IMG/VR virus record: IMGVR_UViG_3300005805_000058
Location: 1-64,000 of that record
Reading direction: 5' to 3' (one strand)
Length of the DNA: 64,000 nt
Origin: a virus
How positions within the stretch are numbered: the first letter of the stretch is position 1; every line of letters starts with the position of its first letter. Below are positions 51,201-64,000 of this stretch, one piece after another. Below the pieces are notes generated by a model. It was not told the DNA's origin. It searched no databases and worked only from the letters and a program-made list of their open reading frames with translations. The translations under genes and the position numbers were made by a program.

Positions 51201-54200
51201 AATAGGTACTAGAAACGTTTCTGTAGGTGCAGGTGCACTTCAAACTAATACAACAGGTAATGATAACGTTGCTGTAGGTAATTATGCTTTGTTAATTAAT
51301 TCAGTAGGTGGTCAGAACGTAGCAGTGGGTAGAGGTGCTTTGAGATATAATACAGTTTCTACTAACACAGCAGTGGGTAGTAGAGCTTTATATTGTAATA
51401 CAACAGGTAATGGTGTTGCTATTGGATATAAAGCTTTGTTTAATAATACAATTGGTACTTCAAATACAGCAGTCGGTTTTTGTGCATTAACAGCTAACAC
51501 TACAGGTCGTCAAAATGCAGCAGTAGGATTTAATGTACTATTGGCTAATACAACAGGTGTCTACAATACAGGATTAGGAAATTGTGCTTTAGTATGTAAC
51601 ACAATTGGTGGTAGTAACACTGGTGTAGGCTTTAGAGCTTTGTTTAACAACTTAACAGGTTGTTACAACATGGGCTTTGGTGAAGATGCTTTAAATGCCA
51701 ACACAGCAGGATCTAACAACGTAGCTATTGGTAAATCCGCTTTAGGAACTAATACAGTATCAAACTTAACAGCAGTTGGATCTAGTGCTTTAAGAGCAAA
51801 CACTACAGGTACAAACAATACAGCCGTAGGTTTTGAAGCTTTGAGATATAACACAACAGGTAATCAAAACACTGCTCTAGGCAATCTAGCTCTAAGACAG
51901 AACACTACAGGTTCTTACAACATATCTATAGGTACTTGTTCAATGAGGAACAACACTGTTGGTCAATCAAACGTAGCTATAGGTAGACTTGCTTTGTATG
52001 GAAATACAATTGGTAATGGTAACATAGCTATTGGTTGTAGAGCTCTAACATCAAACACAACAGCAGAAAACAATACAGCTGTTGGTGCAAACGCATTAAG
52101 AACTAATACCACAGGTGTATTTAACATAGCTATTGGTTCATCTGCATTATGTCTCAATGATGTAGGTGGTCGTAATGTTGCTGTTGGATATGGTTCATTA
52201 CAAGTTAATACAGCAACTGGTAATACTGCTCTTGGTTTTAGAAGTTTAGTTGGTAATACTACAGGTACTGGTAACACAGCAGTAGGATACTGTTCATTAG
52301 GAGCAAATACAATAGGTACTAATAACACAGCAGTTGGCGTTAGAGCTCTTCTTGCAAATACGACAGGAGAGCATAACACAGCAATTGGTCAGTGTGCTTT
52401 ATTGTCAAATACAATTGGAAACAGTAATGTAGCAGTAGGTCATAGAGCATTAATGTGTAATACTACAGGCGCGAGTAACGTAGCAGTAGGTAGGTATAGC
52501 TCATACTCAAATACAGTAGGTACAAATAATACTTCATTAGGTCATTTTAGTCTATTATGTAACACAGCATCAAACAACACAGCAATAGGTTTCTGTACTT
52601 TAAGGACTAATACCACTGGTACATATAATGTGGCAATAGGACACCGTTCTTTAGGCTTAAACACTACAGGAACTAGTAATAACTCTCTTGGTGCATTTTC
52701 TTTATTTAGAAATACTACAGGTGTAGGTAATGTAGCAATAGGTACTAGTGCATTAGAATTTAATACAGTTGGAGTTTGTAATATTGCTATTGGAAATGCT
52801 GCTCTATATTCAAATGATTCAGGAAATAACAACACTGCTATTGGAATATTTGCACTACGAGCTAACACAGCATCTAACAATACAGCAGTAGGCTTTTGTG
52901 CGTTGAGATTTAATACTACTGGTACATACAACGTAGCAGTTGGTAGAAATGCTTTACGAGATAATACGACAGGTGTTCGAAATACTGCATTAGGAAGTAG
53001 TGCGTTAGCTCCTAACACAACAGCGTCTGATAACGTTGCGTTAGGATTTCAAACGTTAGTAAGTTCAGTAACTGGAGGATGTAATGTAGCAGTAGGATCA
53101 AATTCTCTTGTATATAATACAGGAGGTTCAAATAATACAGCTGTAGGTCATCAATCACTATTCTGCAACACAGCATCAAATAACACAGCAGTCGGTTTTT
53201 GTGCATTAAGAAGTAATACAACAGGATGTAGAAACACAGCTGTAGGATACCGTACGTTAACAACAAATACAATAGGCTATAGAAACGTTGGTGTAGGTGA
53301 TAGAGCACTTTTTGCAAATACAACAGGTAATGACAACAATGCAGTAGGTGTTTATGCTCTATTCTGTAATACAACAGGTATAAGAAACGTAGCAATAGGA
53401 ACTGGAGCCATGTTTAACAACATAGGCGGTAGTTTTAATATGGCAATGGGCTTTAACTCGCTATGTACAAACACAGCAGGTAGTAATAATATAGGAATAG
53501 GTTTCTATGCTTTAGGTTCTAACACAGCATCTAACAACGTAGCTGTAGGATTTTGTGCATTAAGAAACAATACAACTGGTACAAGTAATGTAGCGGTAGG
53601 ATTTAGAGCATTAATAAATAATACAACAGGTCTTGTAAACACTGCTTTAGGTAATAATGCAGCCCAAGGAAATACTACAGGTTACAACAACACTGCTTTA
53701 GGTAGTGAAGCTTTAAAATACAATTCAGTAGGTCTTAGTAACACCGCTGTAGGTTCTTCTGCTTTGTTAAATAATACCGCTTCTAATAATACAGCTATTG
53801 GTGCTAGTGCATTAGCATGTAACACTACAGGTACTTGTAATACAGCTGTTGGTATAGCAGCATTAAGAAGTAATACCACTGGTATTGTAAATTCAGCTTT
53901 TGGTTCTCAAGCTCTATATAGTAATACAACAGGATATTCAAACTCAGCATTTGGACAAGGTGCTTTAAGATGTAACGCTACAGGTGTCAACAACACAGCT
54001 GTAGGTAGAGAAGCAATGCAGTGTAATGTAAACGGTAGGTGTAATGTAGCTGTAGGTAATCTTGCGCTAAGTTGTAATATTACAGGATGTAACAATACAG
54101 CTATAGGAGTTTATTCTTTATTCTTAAATACAGCATCTAATAACACGGCAGTTGGTTTCTGTTCATTGAGAAATAATACTACTGGAACATTTAATACCGC

Positions 54201-57200
54201 TGTAGGACATTTAGCATTACGCTCTAATACAACAGGTGCTTGTAATACAGGTGTTGGATATTTAACTTTATTATATAATACTGGAAATAACAATACAGGA
54301 CTAGGAACTTCAGTATTAAGATATAATACAACAGGGATAAACAATACAGCAGTAGGTACAGCTGCGTTATTTTCTAATACCTTTGGAGAAAGAAACACTG
54401 CAGTAGGGTATGCTACTTTAGCTTGCAATACAACAGGTATTTCTAATGTAGCTGTAGGTTCTAGTGCTCTTCGTTTAAATACAATAGGAATTGATAACGT
54501 AGCTGTGGGTAGTGGTGCTCTCAACTGTAACACTACTGGTAATTGTAATATAGCAGTTGGAGGTGGTGCTTTATACTTTAACACTACAGGTACTAATAAC
54601 ATTGGTGTAGGTAGAGCTGCTCTTTCAAGAAACACGTACGGTAACTTCAATACAGCGTTAGGTTATCTTGCAATGTTCTGTAACACAACTGGTGTTAATA
54701 ACGTAGCTATTGGACGTGCTGCTATGAGAGTAAACCTCAATGGTTGTAATAACGTTGCGTTAGGTAACGTAGCATTATGTAGTAACACCACTGGTAATTA
54801 TAACGTTGCAATTGGTAGCTGTGCATTATTTTCTTCTAACTTTGGTTCAACATCTGCAAGCGCAAATGTTGCTGTTGGTTATAGATCATTAGCAACTAAC
54901 ACTACAGGTGGATGTAACACAGGTTTGGGTACAAGAACTCTTGAATCAAACAGCACAGGTACAAGTAATACGGCTATTGGTATATGTTCTTTGAGACTCA
55001 ACTCAATTGGTTTCAATAACACTAGTGTTGGTGCTAACTCAATGGTGTTTAATACGACAGGTGCTGGTAATACAGCAGTGGGTGTATCTGCTCTTAGGAC
55101 TAATACAATAGGTGCAGGTAATACAGCAGTGGGAGTTACAGCATTGTTTGGTAATACAACTGGTGGTTGTAATGTAGCTATTGGTAACAATGCAATGAGA
55201 CTAAACACTGTAGGTACTAGTAACGTTGCAGTGGGTTATCTTTCTCTTTATGCTAACACAGCCTCAAATAATACAGCTATTGGTTTCTGTTCTTTAAGGA
55301 ATAACACAACAGGTACAGATAACATAGCTGTAGGCTGTGGTGCTTTAGCAACAAACACAACAGGTGTATCAAACACAGCTGTAGGTCTAAATGCATTAAG
55401 ATATTCAACAGCCTCAAATAATACAGCAATTGGTCATAGATCTTTGTGGTCTAATACCACAGGTACCAATAACACAGGTGTTGGTTTTTGTTCATTAGGA
55501 AGCAACACAATAGGAGTTAATAACACATCAGTAGGACAAAGTGCTCTAAGAAGTAACACAACAGGAAACTTTAACACAGCTATTGGTGATCAAGCATTAT
55601 GTAAAAATACTACTGCTTCAAACAATACAGCTTTAGGAGCAGCAGCATTATATACTAATACAACTGGATGCAAAAATACAGGACTTGGTAGAGCTGCATT
55701 AGAACAAAATATTGTAGGTAATTATAACACAGCAGTAGGTCATTATTCTTTGCAACTCAATATAGCATCAAACAACACAGCAGTTGGTTTTTGTGCTTTA
55801 AGAAATAACACTACAGGTACACTTAACGTTGCAATAGGAGTTAATTCTTTATGTGCTAATACTACAGGTTATCAAATAACTGCTGTAGGTGTTAATGCTT
55901 TAAAAAACAATACAGTATCATATTCAACTGCTTTTGGTTGGGGTGCTTTAGCAGCTAATTCGATAGGTACAAACAATACAGGTATTGGTAGAGCAGCTTT
56001 ATATGCTAACACTTCAGGTGCTTGTAACACAGCAGTTGGTAATAATACATTACTTTGCAATACAATTGGAGTAAATAATACAGCATTAGGTACATTTGCT
56101 CTTTGTACTAACACAGTATCTAATAACACAGCTATAGGTTTTAGTTCATTAAGACTTAACACTACAGGTACCAATAATACAGCAATTGGTAGTCAGGCAG
56201 GAGGTGGTAATACTACAGGTAACAGTAACGTATCTCTAGGTTACAAAGCACTCACTTCAAATCAAGTGGGTAACAATAACGTAGCTATAGGTGCTTGTTC
56301 TCTAGCATTAAATACTGCTACAAATAACACTGCTATAGGCTACTTTAGTTTAAGAGCTAATACAACAGGTACAAATAACACTGCTTTAGGTATAAATGCA
56401 TTATGTGCTAATACAAGTGCTACTGATAACACAGGTATTGGATTTGGAGCATTAAGAAATGCTACTACAGGTTGTCGTAATGTGGCAGTAGGTGCTTATT
56501 CTCTTGGAACAAATGTAACAGGTATCTATAATGTTGCTGTAGGTAGAGCAGCTTTGTTTAATAGTACCGTAAGTGGGTTAGTGGCAGTGGGTGGTAATGC
56601 ACTTAGATCTAATACCACAGGAGTTGCAAATACTGCTATAGGTAGTGATGCTTTGTATTCAAATGTGGTAGGAGTAAATAATACAGCATTAGGATATAAT
56701 TCATTAAGATCAAATACAGCATCTAATAATACGGCTATTGGATTCTGTTCTCTCAGAGCTAATACAACAGCAATAGCTAATACGGCTGTAGGTGCTTGTG
56801 CTCTACTTAGCACCACTACAGGATCTAATAACGTAGCGTTAGGTACAAGTGCTCTTAGACTGAACACCACTGGTGAACGTAACATTGCAATTGGTGTAAA
56901 TGCACATTGTACAAGTACAATAAACTACAACAACGTAGCTATTGGTCATGCTTCTCTAAGATCTAATTACGGTACATACGCAAATAATAACACAGCTGTA
57001 GGTGCTTACACGTTGTATGCAAACACTACAAATTCATCAAACTCAGCGTTTGGTGCTAGTGTTTTGAAATGTAACACAGCTTTTGGTAACTCAGGCTTTG
57101 GTAGTGCAACGCTTCTTGCTAACACAACAGGTACATGTAACTCAGGATTTGGTCTAGCAGCTCTTAGATTTAACACCACTGGTGGAGATAACACGGCTAT

Positions 57201-57867
57201 GGGTGCGTGTGCTTTGTATTGTAACACAACAGGGGGCCTTAATACAGCACTAGGTGGTTGGGCATTAAGATGTAATACTACAGGGGGACAAAATACAGCT
57301 GTAGGATTTAGTGCTCTTTTAACAAATGTTACAGGAATAAACAACGTAGCTGTTGGTTTTAATGCACAATGTAGTGTAAACGCAAGTCTTGTAAATACAA
57401 TAGCTGTTGGTTGTGGTGCAAACACTAGTGCTAATAACAATCACACTGTTTGGGGTAACTCAGGACACACATGTCATTGTATTTGGGGAACTTGGACAGA
57501 CCAATCTGACTGCAGGGATAAAACAAACATCAAGACTCTTCCTGATTCACTTGGTTTACAGTTTGTTAAGAAACTCAGACCAGTTGTATTTAACTGGGAT
57601 TTCAGAGATAGATATGTTAGAGAGTGTGGATTTGAATATGGTAAGAAAGACGGAACACTTGTAGGTGATAAAGAACAATACGGACTTATTGCTCAAGAAG
57701 TTAAGTCAGTTATTGAGGAATTAGATGTTAAGTTTGATGCTCTTGGATACACTGAAGAACATGATGCTTACAGATTAGCTTACGATCACTTCATTCCATC
57801 TTTGATTAAAGCTGTACAAGAGTTAGAAAAAAGAGTGAGTGATCTAGAAGAAAAGTTGGATAGTTAA
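42235..57867 (+). CDS. Giant trimeric tail fibre/adhesin (5210 aa) with a C-terminal intramolecular chaperone (peptidase S74)
   Basis: N-terminal attachment module and fibre repeats (LTGD, VTV..KG.VT, TINGV.YDLSANR.W); G-T-S triplet repeats; 14-aa N(T/V)A(V/I/L)G..(A/S)L..NT.G YadA-head-like repeats; SD.R.K.NI...L..V.KLRPV.F.W...GLIAQEV...LIKAVQEL at the end. Confidence 0.9.
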   Translation: MEVTCGATPCPVILNSTCVFYEGANLVYTGINTNDNLQTALQKIDAKFQDAGIGYIFQNGIIQTAPGQPVKLGGSLVENTIINSAGYTFELTGTIESAAFITSGGTSSDFVKGDGSLDSTSYQPAGNYITGLTGDGTASGPGNVPFTLATVNANPGTYGSSTLIPVVTVNGKGLVTNVTTTAISVPSGTIILQGDVSGVGTTGVPLTTTLATVNANVYGVNTPLKFAVNAKGLVTSAAPLTAADIITILGYTPVPSTRTITINGVTYDLSANRTWSVGTVTSVQLSLPSAFSVTTPPITSSGTINVVATGTSAQYIRGDGTIGNFSVGTSGTSGTSGTSATSGTSGTTGTSGSSGTSGTSATSGTSGLSGDRFATTSSDTFTLGNAGTLTVDPALSYTVGQSIVVAFDATNYQECVVISYNSITGALQFGAPSLTVGSGTYSAWVVNLDGATGGDGSSGTSGTTGTSGTSGTSGTSATSGTSGTSGTTGTSGSSGTSATDGTSGTSGTTGTSGTTGTSGTTGTSGTSGSSGSSGSSGSSGTSATDGTGGTSGTSGTTGSSGTSGTTGTSGTSGSSGTDGTSGTSGTSATSGTSGTTGTSGTSGSTGTSGTSGTSGSSGTSATDGTGGTSGTSGTSGSSGTTGTSGTSGSSGTSATDGTSGTSGSTGTSGTSGTSGTSGTTGTSGTSGLSGDRYATTSSTTYTLQNPGNTGTITVDPYLAYTVGQSIIIAYDATNYQEAEVTSYNSGTGSLSFTTVTKVGSGTYSSWQVNLDGATGGNGTDGTSGTSGTSATSGTSGTSGSSGTSGTTGTSGSSGTSATSGTSATSGTSGTTGTSGTTGTSGTSGTTGTSGTTGTSGSSGTSATSGTSGTSATDGTGGTSGTSGTTGTSGSSGTSATSGSSGTSATSGTSGTSGTNGSAGTSGTSGTTGTSGTSGTSGTAGSPGTSGTSGTSGTTGTSGTSGTNGSAGTSGTSGTSGSSGTSGTNGTGGTSGTTGTSGTSGTTGTSGTSGTSGTNGTGGTSGTTGTSGSSGTSGSSGTSGTTGTSGTSATSGTSGTTGTSGTSGANGTNGTSGTSATSGTSGSSATSGTSGTTGTSGTSGTSATSGTSGTSGTTGTSGSSGSSGTSATSGTSGTTGTSGSSGTSGTTGTSGSSGLSGDRFATTSSSTYTLQAAGNTGTITVGTGLAYTVGQSIIIVYDINNYQEAEVTSYNPGTGSLSFNTITQVGSGTYSSWTVNLDGATGGDGSSGTSGTTGTSGTSGTSGTTGTSGSSGTSGTTGTSGSSGSSGTSATSGTSATSGTSGTNGTGGTSGTSGTAGTSGTSGTTGTSGTSGSSGVNGTNGTSGTSGSSGTTGTSGTTGTSGSSGTAGTSGTSGTTGTSGTSGTNGSAGTSGTSGTTGTSGTSGTSGTNGTGGTSGTSGTSGTTGTSGSSGTSGTSGTTGTSGTSGSSGSSGSSGTSVAVAGTQEYIVKFTSATTIGDSLTCQKANGDLCVNLTGGVGVDVGKGGGSVATNTAIGNSALVNNTTGTSNLAVGYKALCSNTIGGANTAIGVSSLTSNTTGASNTSVGVSSMTGNTTGTQNSAFGANALRCNITGILNVAVGFNALFANTGGIRNVAVGNSALGNNTIGTNNTAVGDYALLANTTSNNTAVGNNALRCNTIGTRNVAVGVNALLSNTTGNNNTAIGYQTMCANTYGFNNTSIGHGALRNNTTGTQNTAVGLHALQCSTTANCNTALGFYALRVNTTGSQNTAVGWCALVSNLGGTHNVAVGINALRSNTYGLRNVAVGEGALTSNLGSYNVGVGRAALSANTTGSGNVAVGRNAAASNTIGFGNVAVGDQSLANATTACYNTAVGSTALQATTTGANNTAVGFCSLRNNTTGAGNAAVGRSSLQSNTIGFSNAALGSYSLYKNTTGQSNTAVGASSLENNTTGIRNVAVGSLALQQNIIGSSNTALGFSALQCNTTSNNTAVGFCTLRSNTTGTQNVSVGSETLRDNTIGSYNVAFGIGALRYNISGCRNTALGHLALQNNTVSNNTAVGTCALRANTTGVNNTAVGHQSLAVNTTGTTNSAFGTNALLYNTTGTANAAFGSSALCKNTIGGCNTAVGVGSLGNNSTGIVNTAVGANALLNNTIGIENTALGFDALRANTTANDNTAVGVCALRATTTGGLNTALGANALLVNTTGCQNVAVGVNALGNNITGINSTAVGTSALQFNTVSNNTALGFSALCSNTTGTGNTAVGAVSLLSNTTGYNNTAIGWCSLRLNTIGSSNTALGVGTLRTNTTGNCNLAVGNYSMQANTTGFRNVALGLFSLFCNRTGAANVAVGLCSQFSGYSSVDNVALGNYTLQSNVTGIRNTAVGNAALFGNLASNNTAVGYNAMRCNTTGGFNTALGLCTLRANTIGISNVAIGHAALRDGTVVSNNIAIGQYSQVFSTACNNTSVGHRTLYANTTGCYNVAVGRCSLASNTIGVLNTSVGANSLQFNTTGASNTAVGTSTLTFNTTGTLNTAVGRSALQQNTIGFGNTAVGTYSLFNNTTGNCNTAVGLQALCVNTTGQQNTAVGQGALRLNTIGDSNVAVGTVALFNNTTGQSNTAVGALTLCLNTIGRSNVAVGTLALRANTASYNTAVGYSALRSNTTGNVNTAVGLCALVANTIGIRNTAVGSLALNANTTGNFNTATGYKALNANTTGYGNIAIGSGAMRDGNGGNQNVAIGRYSMLSNTGYNNTAVGTRTLYLNTTGNRNTAVGFCALRSNTTGIRNVAIGYNALGTNTAGTCNTAIGESTLIANTTGIRNIAIGTRAGAGVTVNSTIAIGEASMGSAAGAINTIGIGTDTLRYNTGAGNVAIGHLALAPNTTGNSNTAIGTCALRCNTIGTENTSLGFCTLFSNTTGNCNTAIGSLTLRCNTTGANNTAVGRAALAANITGIGNTAIGYKSSQSNTAGLYNTSVGNYSLANNLASYNTAVGNRALRTNTTGSVNVAVGFCAMAANTIGTRNVSVGAGALQTNTTGNDNVAVGNYALLINSVGGQNVAVGRGALRYNTVSTNTAVGSRALYCNTTGNGVAIGYKALFNNTIGTSNTAVGFCALTANTTGRQNAAVGFNVLLANTTGVYNTGLGNCALVCNTIGGSNTGVGFRALFNNLTGCYNMGFGEDALNANTAGSNNVAIGKSALGTNTVSNLTAVGSSALRANTTGTNNTAVGFEALRYNTTGNQNTALGNLALRQNTTGSYNISIGTCSMRNNTVGQSNVAIGRLALYGNTIGNGNIAIGCRALTSNTTAENNTAVGANALRTNTTGVFNIAIGSSALCLNDVGGRNVAVGYGSLQVNTATGNTALGFRSLVGNTTGTGNTAVGYCSLGANTIGTNNTAVGVRALLANTTGEHNTAIGQCALLSNTIGNSNVAVGHRALMCNTTGASNVAVGRYSSYSNTVGTNNTSLGHFSLLCNTASNNTAIGFCTLRTNTTGTYNVAIGHRSLGLNTTGTSNNSLGAFSLFRNTTGVGNVAIGTSALEFNTVGVCNIAIGNAALYSNDSGNNNTAIGIFALRANTASNNTAVGFCALRFNTTGTYNVAVGRNALRDNTTGVRNTALGSSALAPNTTASDNVALGFQTLVSSVTGGCNVAVGSNSLVYNTGGSNNTAVGHQSLFCNTASNNTAVGFCALRSNTTGCRNTAVGYRTLTTNTIGYRNVGVGDRALFANTTGNDNNAVGVYALFCNTTGIRNVAIGTGAMFNNIGGSFNMAMGFNSLCTNTAGSNNIGIGFYALGSNTASNNVAVGFCALRNNTTGTSNVAVGFRALINNTTGLVNTALGNNAAQGNTTGYNNTALGSEALKYNSVGLSNTAVGSSALLNNTASNNTAIGASALACNTTGTCNTAVGIAALRSNTTGIVNSAFGSQALYSNTTGYSNSAFGQGALRCNATGVNNTAVGREAMQCNVNGRCNVAVGNLALSCNITGCNNTAIGVYSLFLNTASNNTAVGFCSLRNNTTGTFNTAVGHLALRSNTTGACNTGVGYLTLLYNTGNNNTGLGTSVLRYNTTGINNTAVGTAALFSNTFGERNTAVGYATLACNTTGISNVAVGSSALRLNTIGIDNVAVGSGALNCNTTGNCNIAVGGGALYFNTTGTNNIGVGRAALSRNTYGNFNTALGYLAMFCNTTGVNNVAIGRAAMRVNLNGCNNVALGNVALCSNTTGNYNVAIGSCALFSSNFGSTSASANVAVGYRSLATNTTGGCNTGLGTRTLESNSTGTSNTAIGICSLRLNSIGFNNTSVGANSMVFNTTGAGNTAVGVSALRTNTIGAGNTAVGVTALFGNTTGGCNVAIGNNAMRLNTVGTSNVAVGYLSLYANTASNNTAIGFCSLRNNTTGTDNIAVGCGALATNTTGVSNTAVGLNALRYSTASNNTAIGHRSLWSNTTGTNNTGVGFCSLGSNTIGVNNTSVGQSALRSNTTGNFNTAIGDQALCKNTTASNNTALGAAALYTNTTGCKNTGLGRAALEQNIVGNYNTAVGHYSLQLNIASNNTAVGFCALRNNTTGTLNVAIGVNSLCANTTGYQITAVGVNALKNNTVSYSTAFGWGALAANSIGTNNTGIGRAALYANTSGACNTAVGNNTLLCNTIGVNNTALGTFALCTNTVSNNTAIGFSSLRLNTTGTNNTAIGSQAGGGNTTGNSNVSLGYKALTSNQVGNNNVAIGACSLALNTATNNTAIGYFSLRANTTGTNNTALGINALCANTSATDNTGIGFGALRNATTGCRNVAVGAYSLGTNVTGIYNVAVGRAALFNSTVSGLVAVGGNALRSNTTGVANTAIGSDALYSNVVGVNNTALGYNSLRSNTASNNTAIGFCSLRANTTAIANTAVGACALLSTTTGSNNVALGTSALRLNTTGERNIAIGVNAHCTSTINYNNVAIGHASLRSNYGTYANNNTAVGAYTLYANTTNSSNSAFGASVLKCNTAFGNSGFGSATLLANTTGTCNSGFGLAALRFNTTGGDNTAMGACALYCNTTGGLNTALGGWALRCNTTGGQNTAVGFSALLTNVTGINNVAVGFNAQCSVNASLVNTIAVGCGANTSANNNHTVWGNSGHTCHCIWGTWTDQSDCRDKTNIKTLPDSLGLQFVKKLRPVVFNWDFRDRYVRECGFEYGKKDGTLVGDKEQYGLIAQEVKSVIEELDVKFDALGYTEEHDAYRLAYDHFIPSLIKAVQELEKRVSDLEEKLDS
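43216..46600 (+). repeat. Gly-X-Y (GTS/GTT/GSS) triplet repeat region interrupted by three copies of an ~85-aa domain
   Basis: Degenerate 9-nt GGN-ACN-(AGT/TCN) repeats. Domain copies SGDR(F/Y)ATTSS...LAYTVGQSI...NYQE..V.SYN..TG.L.F...GSGTYS.W.VNLDGATG lie at about 43339-43593, 44299-44560 and 45697-45957. Confidence 0.9.
46760..57450 (+). repeat. ~42-nt (14-aa) degenerate YadA-head-like repeat array, about 10.7 kb
   Basis: Recurring AAY-ACW-GCW-GTW-GGT and AAY-ACW-ACA-GGT; translation NTAVGxxALxxNTTG with frequent Cys. Confidence 0.9.
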
Positions 57868-57886
57868 TTAAAAGTTGGTAGTTTTG
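57855..57886 (+). promoter_or_regulatory. Bacteroidota-type promoter for the modification cluster
   Basis: GTTG (57855-57858), 20 nt, TAGTTTTG (57879-57886), 4 nt before ATG 57891. Confidence 0.5.
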
Positions 57887-57890
57887 CAGA

Positions 57891-58547
57891 ATGCGTAAAG
57901 TATTGATAGGCACTCCTTCATACGATGGGAGAATAGATGTTTGGTTTGCAAACAGCTTGGTTTCTACAGTGAAAATGTCCTATGAAAAGGACATACATGT
58001 TCACGCTATATACACAAGCTATGATTCTCTCATACAAAGAGCTAGGAACTCTCTCTTTAGACTTGCTCTACAGGGGGGATATGATGACCTATTCTTTATA
58101 GATAGTGATGTTGAATGGGAACCTGAATGGTTCTTTAGGCTTCTTGAAAGACCAGAACCTATTGTGGGATGTGCTCTCATCAAAAAGGCTGAGAATGAAG
58201 GATATACAGTGAAGCTAGTGAACAAAAACTTGAAGTGGTCTAATGATAAAAAGCTCTTAGAAGTGGATGGTGTGGGCACAGGCTTTATGAAGGTGAGTAG
58301 ATTTGCTTTGGAAAAGCTATGGGAGATGAGTGATAAGTATATGTCAGAAGGTGAGGAGCACAGAATGATTTGTGACATTCGTGTAGAGAATGGAGATTTG
58401 ATTAGTGAGGATTATATTGTGTGCAGGAAGTGGCAAGACTTAGGATATAAGATATGGCTTGATCCAACAATCACCATCAACCATATTGGTATTAAGAAAT
58501 ACAAAGGTGATTTTAATGCGTTCATAAAAAAGAACGGATATGTTTGA
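57891..58547 (+). CDS. GT-A fold (GT2-like) glycosyltransferase
   Basis: GTP.YDG, SLI.RARN, LFFIDSD (DxD), GTGFM, SED..C..W...G.KIW.DP...H.G. Confidence 0.85.
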   Translation: MRKVLIGTPSYDGRIDVWFANSLVSTVKMSYEKDIHVHAIYTSYDSLIQRARNSLFRLALQGGYDDLFFIDSDVEWEPEWFFRLLERPEPIVGCALIKKAENEGYTVKLVNKNLKWSNDKKLLEVDGVGTGFMKVSRFALEKLWEMSDKYMSEGEEHRMICDIRVENGDLISEDYIVCRKWQDLGYKIWLDPTITINHIGIKKYKGDFNAFIKKNGYV

Positions 58548-59445
58548 CAAACCAATGGGAGGCACAGAGCTCATGTACAATGAGCTAATGCGCAGATTAC
58601 CAGATAGTTACAAAGAGAAGTTTTCTATATTTAACTACATATCACAGGCAGACTTTTCTAAAACCACAGTGTATTGGAACCAGTTGTCATATGATCAACA
58701 GGGTGTACAGTGGTTGTCAGACAAGAAGAACATAGACATGATTGATCATTTTGTCTTTGTTAGCTACTGGCAAGCTGAGAAGTACAGACAGATATTTGGC
58801 ATTCCTGGATACAAAACAACTGTTATACAGAATGCTTGTATTGGTGTTCCTGATGTCACACGTAACAATGATGTTATTAGGATGTGTTATACATCCACTC
58901 CATACAGAGGACTAGATGTTCTCATAGAGGCTTGGGATAAGTTAAACCCCAAGAACTGTGAGCTGCACGTGTTCTCGAGCTGTAAGATATACGGTCCTGA
59001 TTTTGCTCATACAGAGGAACCTAAATACACTGACCTGTACAATAGGTGTCTCAATACAAAAGGGATTGTATACAGAGGATCAATAGCTAATGATGAGCTT
59101 AGGAAAGAACTTCCTACGTTTGACATATTAGCCTATCCAAACACCTTTGAAGAAACCTCATGCATAGCTGTTATAGAAGCTTTGAGTGCAGGGTTGAGAG
59201 TGGTGACTAGCTCCTTGGGAGCATTACCAGAAACTTCAGAAGGTTGGGCTCGCATCTATCCCTATCTAATGGATAAGGACAAACACGCTGAAGTGTTTGC
59301 TTCTGTTCTAAAGGAGGAGATGGAAGCTGTAGGAACCATCAACCTACAACTACAAAAAGAAATCTATGCTCCAAGATGGAGCTGGGATGCAAGAATAAAC
59401 CAATGGATAAACTTTTTAGACACATTAACCCCAAAACAGCTCTAG
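58540..59445 (+). CDS. GT-B fold (GT4-like) glycosyltransferase
   Basis: GGTE, FVS.WQ, YTS.P.RGL..L, and YP..FEETSCI...EA..AG (Ex7E motif). Confidence 0.88.
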   Translation: MFDKPMGGTELMYNELMRRLPDSYKEKFSIFNYISQADFSKTTVYWNQLSYDQQGVQWLSDKKNIDMIDHFVFVSYWQAEKYRQIFGIPGYKTTVIQNACIGVPDVTRNNDVIRMCYTSTPYRGLDVLIEAWDKLNPKNCELHVFSSCKIYGPDFAHTEEPKYTDLYNRCLNTKGIVYRGSIANDELRKELPTFDILAYPNTFEETSCIAVIEALSAGLRVVTSSLGALPETSEGWARIYPYLMDKDKHAEVFASVLKEEMEAVGTINLQLQKEIYAPRWSWDARINQWINFLDTLTPKQL

Positions 59446-60005
59446 ATATTGGAGCACATGTAGGACAATTTACAAGGAGCTTGTTGAAACAGTTTCCTAA
59501 TTGTCAGGTGATTATGGTGGAGGCTAACCCAAAGTGTGAACCACACCTACAGAACACAGGGGTGAAATATGAAATGGTGGCACTCTCTGATTTTAATGGA
59601 GTGGCTAACCTATATATAGAGAACAATGATGAATTAGGAACTGGTGCTTCCTTATACAAGGAAAACACAAATTGGTACAGTGAGGGTAAGAAACAAACTG
59701 TAACAACAAAACGCCTAGATGATTGTAATTATTTTGATGGAGCCCCAATAGATTTGATAAAGATGGATGTGCAGGGTTCTGAATTAGATGTAGTGAGAGG
59801 TGGTTTAAATACAATAAAAAATGCTACCTTTGTGATGATGGAAACTTCTCTTCTACAATACAACCAAGGAGCTCCTTTGATTGATGCTGTAGTGGAGAGA
59901 ATGATTAGTTTAAACTTCTGCATGTGGGATATTGTTGAATATCACAAGCTTTCAGACGGAACAATTTTCCAATTAGATATATTATTTAAAAACTTAAAAC
60001 AATAA
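59403..60005 (+). CDS. FkbM-family SAM-dependent methyltransferase
   Basis: LDIGAHVG, EANP, RLDD, IKMDVQGSEL.V..G, Q.D..F. Start is probably ATG 59403 (the ORF track uses 59376). Confidence 0.88.
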   Translation: MDKLFRHINPKTALDIGAHVGQFTRSLLKQFPNCQVIMVEANPKCEPHLQNTGVKYEMVALSDFNGVANLYIENNDELGTGASLYKENTNWYSEGKKQTVTTKRLDDCNYFDGAPIDLIKMDVQGSELDVVRGGLNTIKNATFVMMETSLLQYNQGAPLIDAVVERMISLNFCMWDIVEYHKLSDGTIFQLDILFKNLKQ

Positions 60006-60012
60006 TAGAGCC

Positions 60013-60363
60013 ATGAAAATGCTATTTGCTAAGATTAATCCAGTTGCTGAGATCCCTGAGATGGAATCTCCTTTCGAGTATGTTGTAAAACAAGCTGACT
60101 ACCTTACAGCTGTTGCTTCTCCCTATCGCTTAGGTGCTGAAGAAGTGAACTTCAGTCTCATCTATGGAACAGCTACATTTGATGCTGAAGGAAACATGGA
60201 AACATTTACACGTTTGCTTGGTGGATCACTTACACTTGGTGCTCCTTACATTCAAGAATGGGGTATTGATGATTCTGTAATCCTTGAAACAATCTGTGAA
60301 CAAGTGGGTACAGAAGCTATTGAGTTCATCGAGGGTGATCCAAAGGACTTCAATCCATTCTAA
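60013..60363 (+). CDS. Acidic hypothetical protein (WGxDD motif)
   Basis: 116-aa ORF with structural-gene-like codon usage; C-terminal WGIDDSVI. Confidence 0.65.
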   Translation: MKMLFAKINPVAEIPEMESPFEYVVKQADYLTAVASPYRLGAEEVNFSLIYGTATFDAEGNMETFTRLLGGSLTLGAPYIQEWGIDDSVILETICEQVGTEAIEFIEGDPKDFNPF

Positions 60364-60387
60364 TTTACAAACAAAACCAACGACATA

Positions 60388-61209
60388 ATGGTAAAGAAGA
60401 TATTCTACAACAGCTCTCTTCCAAGAGCTGGAAGTACACTTATTCAGAATATTCTAGCACAGAATCCACTAATACACTCTACACCAACCTCTGGTATATT
60501 TGAGCTGTACATGAATGCTCGTAACTATTTCTCTAATGGAATAGAATTCAAAGCACAAGATCAGCAACAAATGGAGAATGGGTTTAAGGGGATGTTGAAA
60601 GATGGACTGTATGGATTTTACAATGCTATAACTGATCGTCCTTATGTCATAGAAAAGTCTAGGGGATGGGGGATGGAGCGTGAGTTCATTCATGCTTTTG
60701 ATCCCAACCCCAAGATTATTTGTATGATTAGGGACATACGTGCTATATATTCATCATTAGAGAAGAAGTATAGACAGAATCCTCTTGTTGACACAAACAT
60801 TGCTAACTGGGGTAACTTAACAGGTACCACCACAGATAAGCGAATGATTGTATGGTCAAACAATCCTCCTATTGGTCCAGCCCTGGACAGGTTATACCAG
60901 ACACTTGTAGCTGGTACACATCAACACATTCTATTTATTAAGTTTGAAGAGCTATGTGCAGATCCTGATACACAATTAAAACGTGTGTATGAGTATCTGG
61001 AGCTCCCTTATTTTGAACATGACTTCAAAAACATCCAACAGTATTCTGTAGAGGATGATAAATGGTATGGTATATTTGGTGACCACATCATCCGTGGAGA
61101 ACTTAAACCTGTAAAGGATGACTATAAAGAAGTGTTAGGTCCTAATGCTTGTAAGATTATAGAGGATAGTTACATGTGGTTCTTTAATGATTTTGGATAT
61201 AAAATTTAA
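60388..61209 (+). CDS. PAPS-dependent sulfotransferase
   Basis: 5'-PSB motif SLPRAGSTL, EKSRGW, 3'-PB motif RD.RAI.SS, and (F/Y)E.L...P...L..VY.YL. Confidence 0.88.
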   Translation: MVKKIFYNSSLPRAGSTLIQNILAQNPLIHSTPTSGIFELYMNARNYFSNGIEFKAQDQQQMENGFKGMLKDGLYGFYNAITDRPYVIEKSRGWGMEREFIHAFDPNPKIICMIRDIRAIYSSLEKKYRQNPLVDTNIANWGNLTGTTTDKRMIVWSNNPPIGPALDRLYQTLVAGTHQHILFIKFEELCADPDTQLKRVYEYLELPYFEHDFKNIQQYSVEDDKWYGIFGDHIIRGELKPVKDDYKEVLGPNACKIIEDSYMWFFNDFGYKI

Positions 61210-61212
61210 CGT

Positions 61213-62166
61213 ATGAACGTAGGATATAAAACCGACACAGAGGTACAGGAAACAGAGAAGTTCACTGTACTAGAAGACAGATCTAAAGAAAGTGATAAGT
61301 ATGTAGTGTGGCACATTGAGGGAGGGCTAGGAAAGAACATAGCTGCCACAGCGTTGATTGAGGATGTTAACAAACGCTATCCTGATAGGAAGCTCGTAAT
61401 GGTGGTATCATACCCAGAGATTTTTCTGAACAATCCCCACATACACAGAGTGTACAGAGTGGGTATGACATCTTATTTCTATGATGACTACATCAATGGT
61501 AAGGACACCATCATATTCAGACATGAGCCTTACTTCCAGAGTGATCACATCATGAAGAAGAAACATCTGATTCACAACTGGTGTGACCTGATGAATTTAG
61601 AATACAAGGAACAACTTCCTATATTCTATCCAAACGCTGTACAGAAAGGAATGGTGCATGCATTCATGCGTGAGAAACCCATCCTACTTATACAGACTAA
61701 CGGTGGTGCTCTTAACAGCAACATGTCCTACTCATGGACAAGAGACATGCCTTTCTATGTAGCTATGGCTATTGCTGAGAGATATGCAAACTCCCATCAC
61801 ATTATACAGGTGACACGTCCTAACACACCTCTAATCCCTGGAGCTGAACAGTTCTTCCATCAGATGACTAACTTTGAGCAGTTCTCAATGATAGCAGCTT
61901 CTGACAAACGTGTATTGATTGATTCTTCTCTACAGCACGCATCTGCAGCCATGGGATTGAGATCTACAGTGTTATGGATAGGAACATCTCCTGTCAACTT
62001 TGGATATAACATACACAATAACATTGTGGCAAATCCTCCAAAGGGTACAAACAAGTTGATTGATTCTTATATATTTGACTATTCGTTTGAAGGTACACCT
62101 CACGAGTGTCCATATAATGACTTGACAGAAATGTTTAATGTGAATGAAATAATAAAATCAATATGA
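61213..62166 (+). CDS. GT-B glycosyltransferase, GT9 (heptosyltransferase)-like
   Basis: GGLGK.IAATA, YPE.FLNNP, IDSSLQH..AA.G..S.VLW..T.P..FGY. Confidence 0.75.
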   Translation: MNVGYKTDTEVQETEKFTVLEDRSKESDKYVVWHIEGGLGKNIAATALIEDVNKRYPDRKLVMVVSYPEIFLNNPHIHRVYRVGMTSYFYDDYINGKDTIIFRHEPYFQSDHIMKKKHLIHNWCDLMNLEYKEQLPIFYPNAVQKGMVHAFMREKPILLIQTNGGALNSNMSYSWTRDMPFYVAMAIAERYANSHHIIQVTRPNTPLIPGAEQFFHQMTNFEQFSMIAASDKRVLIDSSLQHASAAMGLRSTVLWIGTSPVNFGYNIHNNIVANPPKGTNKLIDSYIFDYSFEGTPHECPYNDLTEMFNVNEIIKSI

Positions 62167-62633
62167 TAATAGTGTTGTTTGGGCAGCCACATTGTGGTAA
62201 ATCAACTCTAGCCAAAGAATTAGAAATGTCTAGAGTGTTATATGGAGCAGTGAACATTGATGGTGATGAGCTTAGGAAGTTGTTTGTAAACACAGACTAC
62301 AGCAGAGAAGGAAGACTTAGAAACTTGAATAGGGCTAGTGACATTGCTACATACCTAAACCATATGGGTGATGATGTTATCCTATCTCTTGTCTATCCTT
62401 ACAAAGAAGCTAGAGACTATTTAAACAGTTTATGCAAGGATGTACATTGGATCTATCTCACTTACGAAGGTGAGAGAGGAAGAGAGAACTTTCATGTGAA
62501 AGACTTTGATGTTCCAACAGATGAACGTATATTGCACCTGGATACATCAAAGATGTCTCCATTTGATTGTGTAACTGAAATACTTAAATATGCAAAACTA
62601 TCTAGCAAAAGCAACAGCTCCATCATCTTCTAA
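62163..62633 (+). CDS. cysC: Adenylyl-sulfate (APS) kinase-like P-loop kinase
   Basis: GQPHCGKSTLA, IDGDELR, YS.EGR..N, SLV.PY...R, F.VP; shortened lid region. Confidence 0.75.
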   Translation: MIIVLFGQPHCGKSTLAKELEMSRVLYGAVNIDGDELRKLFVNTDYSREGRLRNLNRASDIATYLNHMGDDVILSLVYPYKEARDYLNSLCKDVHWIYLTYEGERGRENFHVKDFDVPTDERILHLDTSKMSPFDCVTEILKYAKLSSKSNSSIIF

Positions 62634-62988
62634 CTCAAAGAAGTATGCAATGTTTATTGGAAGATGGCAACCTTGGCATTCAGGTCACAGGTGGTTAATT
62701 GACCAAGCCCTTAATGAGGGTAAACATGTTTTGTTATGTATTAGAGAAGTGGAACCAGATGAGAAGAATCCCTGGACACCTGGACAAGTTTTATTAAATT
62801 TAGCAAATGAACTGGAAGAACTGGTGGAATCAGGAAGACTCAGAATTATTACTATTCCTGATATTGAATCTATTAACATTGGTCGTGGTATCGGTTATGA
62901 TGTCATAGAACACATACCACCTCAAGACATACACGATATATCTGCTACAAGAATTAGAGAACAAATGAAAGCAGAGGGTAAGTTATGA
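62590..62988 (+). CDS. HxGH nucleotidyltransferase (cytidyltransferase-like)
   Basis: FIGRWQPWHSGH and C-terminal ISATRIR. Confidence 0.8.
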   Translation: MQNYLAKATAPSSSNSKKYAMFIGRWQPWHSGHRWLIDQALNEGKHVLLCIREVEPDEKNPWTPGQVLLNLANELEELVESGRLRIITIPDIESINIGRGIGYDVIEHIPPQDIHDISATRIREQMKAEGKL

Positions 62989-63209
62989 TAGTAGAAACAA
63001 AAAGACATATAGCCAAAACTATAAGCTACCGCATTATAAGCACACTGATTGGTGTGCTTACTATGTTTGTAGTGACAGGATCTATAAAAGCAGGAGCTGC
63101 ATTTGGTGCAGCTGAGCTTTTATGGAAGCCCATACAATATTACATCCACGAACGTATTTGGTATAAGTGGGTTAGATATGGCCTAAGAGCGCAAAAACAA
63201 CCTGACTAG
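62985..63209 (+). CDS. DUF2061-like small membrane protein
   Basis: RH.AKTISYRI, two hydrophobic helices, K...YY.HER.W. Confidence 0.75.
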   Translation: MIVETKRHIAKTISYRIISTLIGVLTMFVVTGSIKAGAAFGAAELLWKPIQYYIHERIWYKWVRYGLRAQKQPD

Positions 63210-63999
63210 CGTCTATCTTCCTATGGCATTCAAACTGCCTATCTGTTCCTTTGTGAACAGGACACCAATCCCAATCTCCTGCATCAAATCTATATTCAGG
63301 TTTATTCCAGCATCCGTGACACACGTTTGTGTTATCTATTCTGATGCATTTAAACTCATGGTCAGCATCTGTAAAGTTGCTAATCATCACCACCTTTTTG
63401 TTCATAGCCCAAGCTAACCAGCTCAGTCCACTAGATAGTCCTATGAATAGATGACTGTGATGAATGACATTCATGGTGTTCTCCATGGATGTATCTTCTA
63501 TTTGCTCACAGTTGTCAAAAGGATTCTTCTCCTTAGATACATTTATCACTCTGTATCCCTTCTCATGCAGGAAGTTGATTACTGCCTGCCATCCCTCTTT
63601 GGTCCAGAACTTACAGCCAGATGTAGAATTAGTGGCTATTGTAATATACTTACCGTATGGATTATCACTAGCATCAAAATCAATTCTTGGTTTAATCTCT
63701 TGATAATCAACGCCCAAGATGTTTGTTGCTGTTTCTTGTAGGTTAACTGTGTTACAAAGCTTGGGCTCTCTATCACTGTCATAAAACCAACCCACATTGT
63801 ACATACCCATGATGTTGTTAACTACAGATCCTGGATTGACAAATTCAATCTCTGGATAGACATTCTTGAATAGGAAGTTTTTGAATGTGCTCACTATTAC
63901 ATGGCAGTTATGTTTCTTCTGAAACTCTAGAACATATGGCATCCATGCTATTGTATCTCCCAGTGACTTGCTGTCAAAAGCTATGTACACACGCTGGTT
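63172..63999 (-). CDS. TibC/Aah-type (autotransporter strand-loop-strand) protein O-heptosyltransferase, 5'-truncated
   Basis: Frame stays open to the window edge (NQRVYIAFDSKSLGDTIAW.PY). Also K.W....W..V..FL...GY, FIGLSSGLSWLAW, ISNFT...EF and the Cys cluster CHGCWN...WCP.HKGT.RQFEC...I typical of the Fe-binding TibC family. Confidence 0.85.
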   Translation of the reverse strand, partial: NQRVYIAFDSKSLGDTIAWMPYVLEFQKKHNCHVIVSTFKNFLFKNVYPEIEFVNPGSVVNNIMGMYNVGWFYDSDREPKLCNTVNLQETATNILGVDYQEIKPRIDFDASDNPYGKYITIATNSTSGCKFWTKEGWQAVINFLHEKGYRVINVSKEKNPFDNCEQIEDTSMENTMNVIHHSHLFIGLSSGLSWLAWAMNKKVVMISNFTDADHEFKCIRIDNTNVCHGCWNKPEYRFDAGDWDWCPVHKGTDRQFECHRKIDASQVVFALLGHI

Positions 64000-64000
64000 C

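Follow-up and report, generated by a model that had tools for sequence, protein, structure and literature searches.

At the downstream end of the window, i.e., the first 64 kb (64,000 nucleotides) of the 90,268-bp virus record IMGVR_UViG_3300005805_000058 from IMG/VR, three overlapping genes encode a kinase resembling adenosine 5'-phosphosulfate (APS) kinase, a small HxGH nucleotidyltransferase (NTase) and a DUF2061 membrane protein. Here, we suggest that the three genes might form a self-contained module supplying 3'-phosphoadenosine 5'-phosphosulfate (PAPS), in which the NTase would act as a small ATP sulfurylase pulled forward by the kinase, a reading that we rate as somewhat favoured by the data. 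The completeness of the record is estimated by CheckV at 78%. As its tail ring protein matches CrAss_Ring_1, the record is taken to be a crAss-like phage; nucleotide similarity to known phages is confined to two records with one 64-nt match each. The genes of the putative module and their two upstream neighbours are:

62163-62633, plus strand: kinase of 156 aa, APS-kinase-like with a short lid, proposed APS 3'-kinase making PAPS (Pfam, PDB sequence matches, AF2 fold)
62590-62988, plus strand: HxGH NTase of 132 aa, apparently derived from NadM/NMNAT (NMN adenylyltransferase, NMN being nicotinamide mononucleotide), proposed small ATP sulfurylase (PF01467, fold, fusions)
62985-63209, plus strand: small DUF2061 membrane protein of 74 aa, proposed accessory of the module (PF09834)
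60388-61209, plus strand: sulfotransferase of 273 aa, likely consumer of PAPS (Sulfotransfer_3, Sulfotransfer_1, phrog_27463)
61213-62166, plus strand: conserved 317-aa gene between sulfotransferase and kinase (homologue in 37 of 80 viral loci)

This layout agrees with the original prediction, made from the sequence of the window, of three overlapping open reading frames (ORFs) one gene downstream of a sulfotransferase gene. Between the 317-aa gene and the kinase gene, stop and start overlap by 4 nt (ATGA); the kinase and NTase genes share 44 nt and the NTase and DUF2061 genes again 4 nt (ATGA). Overlaps of 4, 44 and 4 nt with the respective upstream neighbour fit one translationally coupled unit. 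A promoter scan of positions 57500-64000 returned 22 promoter-like sites vs. 22.5 expected and hence no excess, and a terminator scan of the same region yielded none that was informative. The prediction had also noted that the window lacks a Sat or CysDN ATP sulfurylase. This extends to the whole 90,268-bp record, in which a six-frame search found no match to Sat (PF01747) and which likewise holds no match to the CysD/CysH superfamily (PF01507).

Family and fold of the three proteins

The kinase passes the cut-off of the Pfam model APS_kinase (PF01583; E 1.2e-11, 45.3 bits vs. 21.1), which it covers at profile positions 4-99 of 152 only. Its top NCBIfam matches are also APS-kinase models, reached far under their cut-offs (TIGR00455, 38.8 bits vs. 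138.7; NF004041, 50.3 bits vs. 127), and its top sequence matches in the PDB are APS kinases (2yvu, E 1.3e-7). When the AlphaFold2 (AF2) model of the kinase (pLDDT 88.7) is compared to the PDB with Foldseek, the list down to rank 48 consists entirely of APS kinases and of APS-kinase(-like) domains from PAPS synthases and ATP sulfurylases (TMq 0.70-0.83). In a HMMER alignment, the P-loop is aligned as well, and D33-G34-D35, R38, Y46, R51, and N54 correspond to D61-G62-D63, R66, F75, R80, and N83 of the Penicillium chrysogenum enzyme, which we take to be the Mg/APS-binding residues. D33-G34-D35, R38, R51, and N54 are invariant in 18 phage-type kinases and Y46 is near-invariant. The lid between strand 4 and the last strand differs: about 19 alignment columns of canonical APS kinases are gaps in the window kinase and its subfamily, which carries a P-loop of the 'GQP' type. 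Alignment and model together suggest an enzyme of the APS-kinase fold that has kept the residues on its APS side and trimmed its lid.

The NTase contains the motifs GRWQPWHSGH and ISATRIR, as the original prediction had noted when it proposed a stripped-down sulfate adenylyltransferase. The sole family model that it passes is the superfamily model CTP_transf_like (PF01467; E 3.7e-6, 27.6 bits vs. a cut-off of 21). Its nearest NCBIfam family is archaeal NMNAT (NF002243; 39.2 bits vs. a cut-off of 127, model positions 3-81 of 175), and NadM (TIGR01527) is matched with 34.1 bits vs. 181.2 at positions 2-82 of 167, i.e., both models are matched in their N-terminal half only. When the PDB is searched with a profile of 28 NTase family sequences, M. 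jannaschii NMNAT is matched at E 1.4e-11 and Sat chains are absent at E<=1.

The AF2 model of the NTase (pLDDT 88.4) finds NMNAT 1m8g by Foldseek (E 3.8e-4, TMq 0.65). The original prediction had proposed a comparison with the structures of Sat, NMNAT and HldC, and among these NMNAT is the nearest: VIA-align ranks M. jannaschii NMNAT 1f9a first (Z 9.6, root-mean-square deviation (rmsd) 3.1, 110 residues aligned), followed by PPAT (Z 9.3), NadM (Z 9.1), and NadR (Z 8.4). Thermus ATP sulfurylase 1v47 follows at rank 11 (Z 7.3, rmsd 3.9, 115 aligned) and HldC 5x9q at rank 25 (Z 6.2, rmsd 3.5, 94 aligned), and the cytidylyltransferases Fom1 (Z 7.8) and glycerol-3-phosphate cytidylyltransferase (Z 6.8) are among the further matches. 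The HxxH motif of the NTase (H30-S-G-H33) on a HUP-class Rossmann-like fold is a feature common to the whole superfamily. H30 is invariant and H33 near-invariant in the NTase family, in which R25, G32, R52, G98, R99, S118, T120, and R123 are also invariant or near-invariant and the motifs GR(W/F)QP.H.GH, NP(W/F)T, and IS(A/G)T.IR are kept. The two blocks that match NMNAT are separated by about 23 positions in the NTase family vs. about 46 in MJ0541 (about 23 residues shorter). The near-invariant arginines R52 and R99, the latter within a G-R-x-V-G-Y motif, are extra to the family and would sit where the second substrate is expected, being predicted to bind the sulfate.

A cut-down Sat domain was considered for the NTase and rejected, based on the lack of a PF01747 match in the record and of a Sat chain among the PDB matches of the family profile. 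Sequence matches and predicted fold instead point to a shortened derivative of NadM/archaeal NMNAT. Of the initial proposal, the Sat ancestry is thereby lost, while a role in APS supply stands as the best-supported reading. Of 4894 candidates from a word-index search with the NTase, 4882 proteins pass E<=0.001; the top 120 of these have 112-145 aa and 73-100% identity, and an exhaustive search of 50%-identity representatives gave 1076 NTase clusters at E<=1e-3. In public databases, these proteins are annotated as 'adenylyl-sulfate kinase', 'cytidyltransferase-like protein', or 'nicotinamide mononucleotide adenylyltransferase'.

The 74-aa protein matches PF09834 almost end to end (E 5.6e-14, 52.7 bits vs. 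a cut-off of 23.1, positions 1-51 of 52). Phage DUF2061 proteins share a mean column identity of 75%, with R7, H8, K11, R16, E44, K48, H55, E56, and R57 invariant. A structure-based prediction of a complex between the kinase and DUF2061 returned 'no answer' (score 0.00, mark 0.32) and bears neither way on binding. A connection to sulfate comes from Bacteroidota, in which 6 of 121 sampled genomes encode DUF2061, three of them (G045, G179, and G195; loci L165, L166, and L167) within sulfate-assimilation operons. The order in L165 is Rrf2 regulator, DUF2061, CysH-like, CysD. By eye, L166 reads CysQ-like, two DUF2061 copies, CysC, CysD, and L167 reads DUF2061, CysC, CysD. Gene assignments in L165-L167 and in loci L105-L106 discussed below (CysH, CysQ, CysC, CysN, MetK, etc.) were made by eye, with the CysD of G045 (L165) and G060 confirmed by genome search. 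Moreover, two of the 55 matches in a search for longer DUF2061 proteins (P0328 and P0329, 277 aa) are fusions of DUF2061 with APS_kinase, and the kinase of P0328 is full-length according to Pfam (197 bits). The DUF2061 protein had been suspected to serve the module as an anchor or transporter, and operons and fusions lend support to its link with sulfate metabolism. It is presumably an accessory of the module, with membrane tethering or sulfate handling as candidate roles.

Recurrence in viral and cellular genomes

In IMG/VR, 210 pattern matches included 193 confirmed loci, of which the best 80 form the viral set. A kinase homologue is present in 76 of these 80 loci and stands directly upstream of the NTase in 66; 62 loci carry DUF2061, 45 of them directly downstream of the NTase. 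Of the four loci without a kinase, two are cut by the locus edge; in the other two (L062 and L073), there truly is none within 6 kb. Because the three-gene arrangement recurs in related viral loci at these frequencies, it does not arise by chance. The NTase is the best conserved gene of the set, with a median identity of 72% vs. 57% for the kinase. Close homologues of the window sulfotransferase are found in 41 of the 80 loci, of the 317-aa gene in 37 and of a GT9/TibC-like protein in 12; the product of the 317-aa gene has no match in Pfam or NCBIfam.

The window sulfotransferase itself matches Sulfotransfer_3 (E 1.4e-17), Sulfotransfer_1 (E 1e-11), and phrog_27463 (E 1.6e-41). Whole viral records, 43 in all and drawn from two isolate phages and 42 of the viral loci, match Sulfotransfer_3 in 26 cases, including five of the six records that are at least 90% complete. 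Several proteins of 175-196 aa starting with a 'PR(T/S)GST' P-loop occur in L020, L062, and L073, which carry no close homologue of the sulfotransferase. Two of the four that were scanned match the first 30 positions of Sulfotransfer_3 below threshold (E 0.0078 and 0.001) and the other two do not match. These proteins, left out of the sulfotransferase counts, may represent a very divergent family of small sulfotransferases.

The kinase and the NTase are also found as one protein. PHROG 10255 is a profile of 230 positions, the first part of which matches the window kinase and the last part the NTase, and it corresponds to single genes of the Xylella phages Bacata, Salvo, and Sano and of Stenotrophomonas phage DLP_6. 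In Bacata (L001), a neighbour of the fused gene is annotated 'COG3236 / GTP cyclohydrolase II', and a MazG-like gene lies another three genes upstream. Among ten long NTase representatives scanned with Pfam, nine combine APS_kinase with the NTase, the kinase being first in five and the NTase in four. Several fused kinase domains are full length and score high (P0177, 230.7 bits over the whole profile; P0213, 207.2; P0181, 179.9; P0243, 178.9). A local hidden Markov model from 20 kinases detects a kinase domain in 28 of the 33 proteins of at least 230 aa among the best 150 representatives, and in 2 of the 117 shorter ones. The five long representatives without a kinase domain include a fusion to a class I methyltransferase (P0251) and one to DUF6717 (P0193). 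The strongest single argument for placing the NTase one step from APS is that it occurs fused, in either order, to an unambiguous APS kinase.

A scan of 185,579 species genomes gave at least 600 pattern matches and at least 554 confirmed loci, and the best 80 were kept. These stem from Marinimicrobia, Flavobacteriales, Pelagibacteraceae (SAR11), Acidobacteriota, Planctomycetota, Omnitrophota, Verrucomicrobiota, Ignavibacteria, and bacteria of the Candidate Phyla Radiation (CPR), as well as from archaea of marine group III (MGIII) and from Woese- and Nanoarchaeota. For the neighbourhoods, we selected 37 of the 80 loci to limit redundancy; the other 43 are mostly further Pelagibacteraceae. Judged by length, the NTase gene reaches at least 257 aa in 18 of the 37. 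The 142 flanking proteins (two genes on each side) most often match APS_kinase (16), Sulfotransfer_3 (11), AAA_18 (11), Sulfotransfer_1 (8), and methyltransferases (8), i.e., sulfotransferases are the commonest neighbours of the NTase in bacteria and archaea apart from kinases. In Marinimicrobia locus L098, Sulfotransfer_5 (E 4e-48) is followed by a canonical APS kinase and the NTase, and in Planctomycetota locus L114 an NTase-APS kinase fusion is followed by Sulfotransfer_1 (E 6e-13). The NTase adjoins a weak Sulfotransfer_1 match in Verrucomicrobiota locus L096, and the APS kinase-NTase fusion of CPR locus L121 adjoins a protein that combines a sub-threshold Sulfotransfer_5 match with NUDIX. 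Two loci in metagenome-assembled genomes (MAGs; L089 and L101) show the phage-like order sulfotransferase, kinase, NTase (and DUF2061) and may be phage DNA.

Some cellular neighbourhoods are of a different kind. In a marine group III euryarchaeote (L105), the kinase-NTase pair is flanked, by eye, by S-adenosylhomocysteine hydrolase and S-adenosylmethionine (SAM) synthetase on one side and by serine hydroxymethyltransferase on the other, a methionine/SAM-cycle setting. A cluster recurring in Omnitrophota and Planctomycetota (L108, L110, L115, L117, L118, and L125) combines a protein of about 470 aa, an arginine-deiminase/DDAH-like protein, and an NTase-APS kinase fusion with methyltransferase-like and B12-binding radical-SAM-like proteins, and may represent a sulfated natural-product or lipid pathway of a new kind.

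Whole genomes were searched for 47 of the 80 cellular loci. APS_kinase is found in 44 of them, Sat in 4, and CysD in 3 over the cut-off (6 at E<=1e-10), so that 35 of the 44 genomes with NTase and APS kinase have no known sulfurylase (Sat or CysD). To our knowledge, SAR11 lacks assimilatory sulfate reduction; of the 13 Pelagibacteraceae genomes searched, two encode Sat and none CysD. As a control, we used 101 sampled genomes from the phylum of G044, the genome of Marinimicrobia locus L088. APS kinase is present in 72 and the NTase in 4. The four NTase holders all encode the kinase and none encodes Sat or CysD, whereas 61 of the 68 kinase holders without the NTase have Sat or CysD and 7 do not. 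Fisher's test gives p = 3e-4 when confined to the phylum and p = 6e-14 when the broad set is compared with that control; both values overstate independence, as the genomes are related and many are incomplete MAGs or single-amplified genomes (SAGs).

A proposed route from sulfate to PAPS and its alternatives

The adenylylation of sulfate is strongly unfavourable; it needs either the pull of APS kinase and pyrophosphatase or, as with CysN, the energy of GTP hydrolysis. For this reason, an ATP sulfurylase without a GTPase should be tied tightly to APS kinase, and the observed pattern agrees: NTase and kinase are almost always adjacent or fused, as would be expected if the kinase pulls the unfavourable sulfurylase step. 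In the proposed route, the NTase, although outside the Sat and CysD families, would adenylylate sulfate (ATP + sulfate -> APS + pyrophosphate). The coupled short-lid kinase would phosphorylate APS at once to PAPS and thereby pull the first step, and the sulfotransferase encoded one gene upstream would consume PAPS to yield a sulfated product. DUF2061 may serve as a membrane accessory of sulfate activation, either as a tether or in sulfate handling. The APS-supplying part of this proposal, carried over from the original prediction, now draws on the APS kinase fusions in both orders, on sulfotransferase neighbours in phages, Planctomycetota, Marinimicrobia, and CPR bacteria and on the scarcity of Sat and CysD. 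Taken as a whole, the module is probably a variant PAPS synthase, the sulfurylase half of which belongs to a new, NMNAT-derived enzyme family.

The proposed module resembles PAPS synthases and Sat-CysC fusions (human PAPSS1 1x6v; Aquifex aeolicus 2gks; P. chrysogenum 1i2d), in which an HxxH-type adenylyltransferase and an APS kinase, likewise paired or fused in either order, supply sulfotransferases. The window kinase matches these structures by fold, and the NTase resembles their sulfurylase domains at the level of the superfamily fold (Z 5.8-7.3). However, the adenylyltransferase comprises 110-132 aa here vs. about 400, has no PF01747 match and appears to descend from NMNAT rather than Sat, the lid of the phage-subfamily kinase is shortened and the module includes a DUF2061 membrane protein in addition. 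Archaeal NMNAT and NadM (MJ0541 1f9a; M. thermoautotrophicum 1ej2; NadM 2qjt) are the closest relatives of the NTase by sequence and fold and share its motifs, but the NTase falls under their family cut-offs, is shorter between the matched blocks, carries the additional R52 and R99 and has APS kinase and sulfotransferases rather than NAD (nicotinamide adenine dinucleotide) genes as gene partners. The same net chemistry, from sulfate via APS to PAPS, is carried out by CysDN and CysC, and DUF2061 occurs in CysD/CysC operons of Bacteroidota. Yet CysD has an unrelated fold (a PAPS-reductase-like ATP pyrophosphatase), and without a GTPase subunit coupling here would be by the kinase alone. NadR and CoA synthase (PPAT plus dephospho-CoA kinase) similarly join an HxGH adenylyltransferase to a P-loop kinase of the same pathway, and both NadR and PPAT are top fold matches of the NTase; here, the kinase is of the APS-kinase type and the substrates would differ.

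The sulfate acceptor would probably be a glycan assembled by the glycosyl- and methyltransferases encoded around the module, and the sulfated product may sit on the Ser/Thr-rich fibre or on the surface of the host. The module closes a tailoring block behind the gene of the 5210-aa fibre. This block comprises a weak GT2-like match, GT1, an FkbM methyltransferase, a 116-aa ORF, the sulfotransferase, and the 317-aa gene; the kinase, NTase, and DUF2061 genes follow directly, all on the plus strand. In the fibre protein (42235-57867, plus strand), long collagen-like Gly-Thr-Ser tracts precede hundreds of short 'N-T-A-V-G'-type repeats, which by eye resemble the strand-loop-strand repeats heptosylated by TibC/Aah enzymes; the fibre is a candidate acceptor for the tailoring enzymes encoded next to it. 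A TibC/Aah-like enzyme is encoded convergently to the module:

63172-64000, minus strand, on to 66588 of the record: TibC/Aah-like O-heptosyltransferase domain, C-terminal part of a 1138-aa methyltransferase-GT1-GT9 protein (TIGR04414)

The 1138-aa protein matches TIGR04414 with E 1.7e-74 (251 bits vs. a cut-off of 200) and contains the domains Methyltransf_23, Glycos_transf_1, and Glyco_transf_9 (L003:1173-4589). The TibC/Aah-like protein is context and lies outside the PAPS module.

Several observations weigh against sulfate activation by the module. By sequence and predicted fold, the NTase appears nearest to NMN adenylyltransferases and not to Sat. Because the canonical lid is gone and the score of 38.8 bits stays far from the 138.7-bit equivalog cut-off, APS is the presumed rather than the established substrate of the window kinase. 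Eighteen of the 80 viral loci have no DUF2061. Neither Sulfotransfer_3 nor Sulfotransfer_1 is matched in record G025, which is 93% complete, and the complete isolate phages Bacata (L001) and DLP_6 (L002), which carry the fusion, have no match to Sulfotransfer_3, Sulfotransfer_1, or DUF2061. The remaining three of the six Bacteroidota DUF2061 copies have as their neighbours a P-type ATPase, an adenylosuccinate synthetase-like gene, or unrelated genes. Nine of the 44 NTase-bearing genomes with APS kinase do encode a known sulfurylase, and the relatedness and incompleteness of the genomes tempers the phyletic statistics. In an Acidobacteriota MAG (L106), the NTase-APS kinase fusion (P0149) is divergent from adjoining cysD-like and cysN-like genes identified by eye, next to which a second sulfurylase seems unnecessary. 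Finally, the DUF2061 genes SO_4740 of Shewanella (PMC12442407) and CC_0155 of Caulobacter (PMC3751524) are listed among iron/Fur-responsive genes, which hints at a DUF2061 role not limited to sulfate.

The cysD-like gene of L106 is of a short type that stays below the cut-off (223 bits, model positions 1-205). Ten genomes of the Marinimicrobia-phylum sample contain this type as well, in several cases beside APS kinase.

Alternatively, the kinase alone might take part in sulfate activation, converting host APS to PAPS, with the NTase activating another acceptor of the same tailoring pathway, e.g., a phospho-sugar, a phosphonate, or a cofactor precursor. We regard this as rather unlikely, yet it is in keeping with the generic HxGH fold of the NTase, which is close to PPAT (Z 9.3), Fom1 cytidylyltransferase (7.8), and glycerol-3-phosphate cytidylyltransferase (6.8), with the position of its gene in a glycan-tailoring cluster, with the fusions to methyltransferase and DUF6717 and with the cysD- and cysN-like genes adjoining one NTase-APS kinase fusion. 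It leaves unexplained, however, why NTase and APS kinase are fused or adjacent across phages, bacteria, and archaea in very different contexts, and why an APS source is missing in 35 of 44 pair-bearing genomes vs. 7 of 68 in the control. Kinase and NTase could also be a NadR-like pair for NAD+ salvage, i.e., a nicotinamide riboside kinase and an NMN adenylyltransferase, perhaps countering an NAD-depleting defence. NAD salvage genes are frequent in phages, the NTase has archaeal NMNAT, NadM, and NadR as its closest characterised relatives, many family members are labelled 'nicotinamide mononucleotide adenylyltransferase' by JGI, and the Bacata fusion stands beside the COG3236-annotated gene with no sulfotransferase found there. 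We consider NAD salvage improbable nonetheless: the kinase resembles APS kinase in sequence and fold and not the AAA_28/NadR type, the fused partners include full-length canonical APS kinases of more than 200 bits, the NTase remains far under the NMNAT cut-offs and is confined to the N-terminal half of the models, and its recurrent neighbours are sulfotransferases rather than NAD genes.

The original prediction had itself offered another substrate, suggesting that the NTase could be an HldC-like heptose-1-phosphate adenylyltransferase making ADP-heptose for the neighbouring TibC-like O-heptosyltransferase. The TibC/Aah-type domain is indeed convergently adjacent, and HldC, like the NTase a member of the HxGH superfamily, is among the fold matches. 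Yet no HldC/RfaE-type model is among the 17 NCBIfam families that the NTase matches at E<=0.1, a GT9/TibC-like homologue accompanies 12 of 80 viral loci as compared to 76 for the kinase, and none of the 25 commonest among the 173 families matched by cellular neighbours belongs to a heptose pathway. Furthermore, the ADP-heptose pathway uses a ribokinase-type and not an APS-kinase-type kinase. This alternative has found little support and seems very improbable to us.

Implications for sulfate activation

The module might define a third, minimal class of ATP sulfurylase, for which we see about an even chance: an enzyme of about 110 aa that evolved from NMNAT, works only in tandem or fused with APS kinase and supplies PAPS in phages as well as in lineages regarded as devoid of sulfate activation (SAR11, small-genome Marinimicrobia, CPR bacteria, DPANN archaea, and MGIII), with DUF2061 as its membrane-bound, sulfate-handling partner. 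Full-text searches of the open literature, judged from titles and abstract openings, yielded no account of either the enzyme or the module.

An APS-forming NTase would mean that one step of the sulfur cycle has been overlooked in genome annotation. SAR11, many candidate phyla, and many phages scored as unable to activate sulfate could then still make PAPS and sulfate glycans, lipids, or metabolites. The NTase would be a clear case of a long-known reaction taken over by a new type of enzyme, one drawn from NAD metabolism, and the pair would provide a compact PAPS synthase of one or two genes for biotechnology. For crAss-like and other large phages, this suggests that they might bring their own supply of sulfate donor to decorate glycans of the virion or the host surface.

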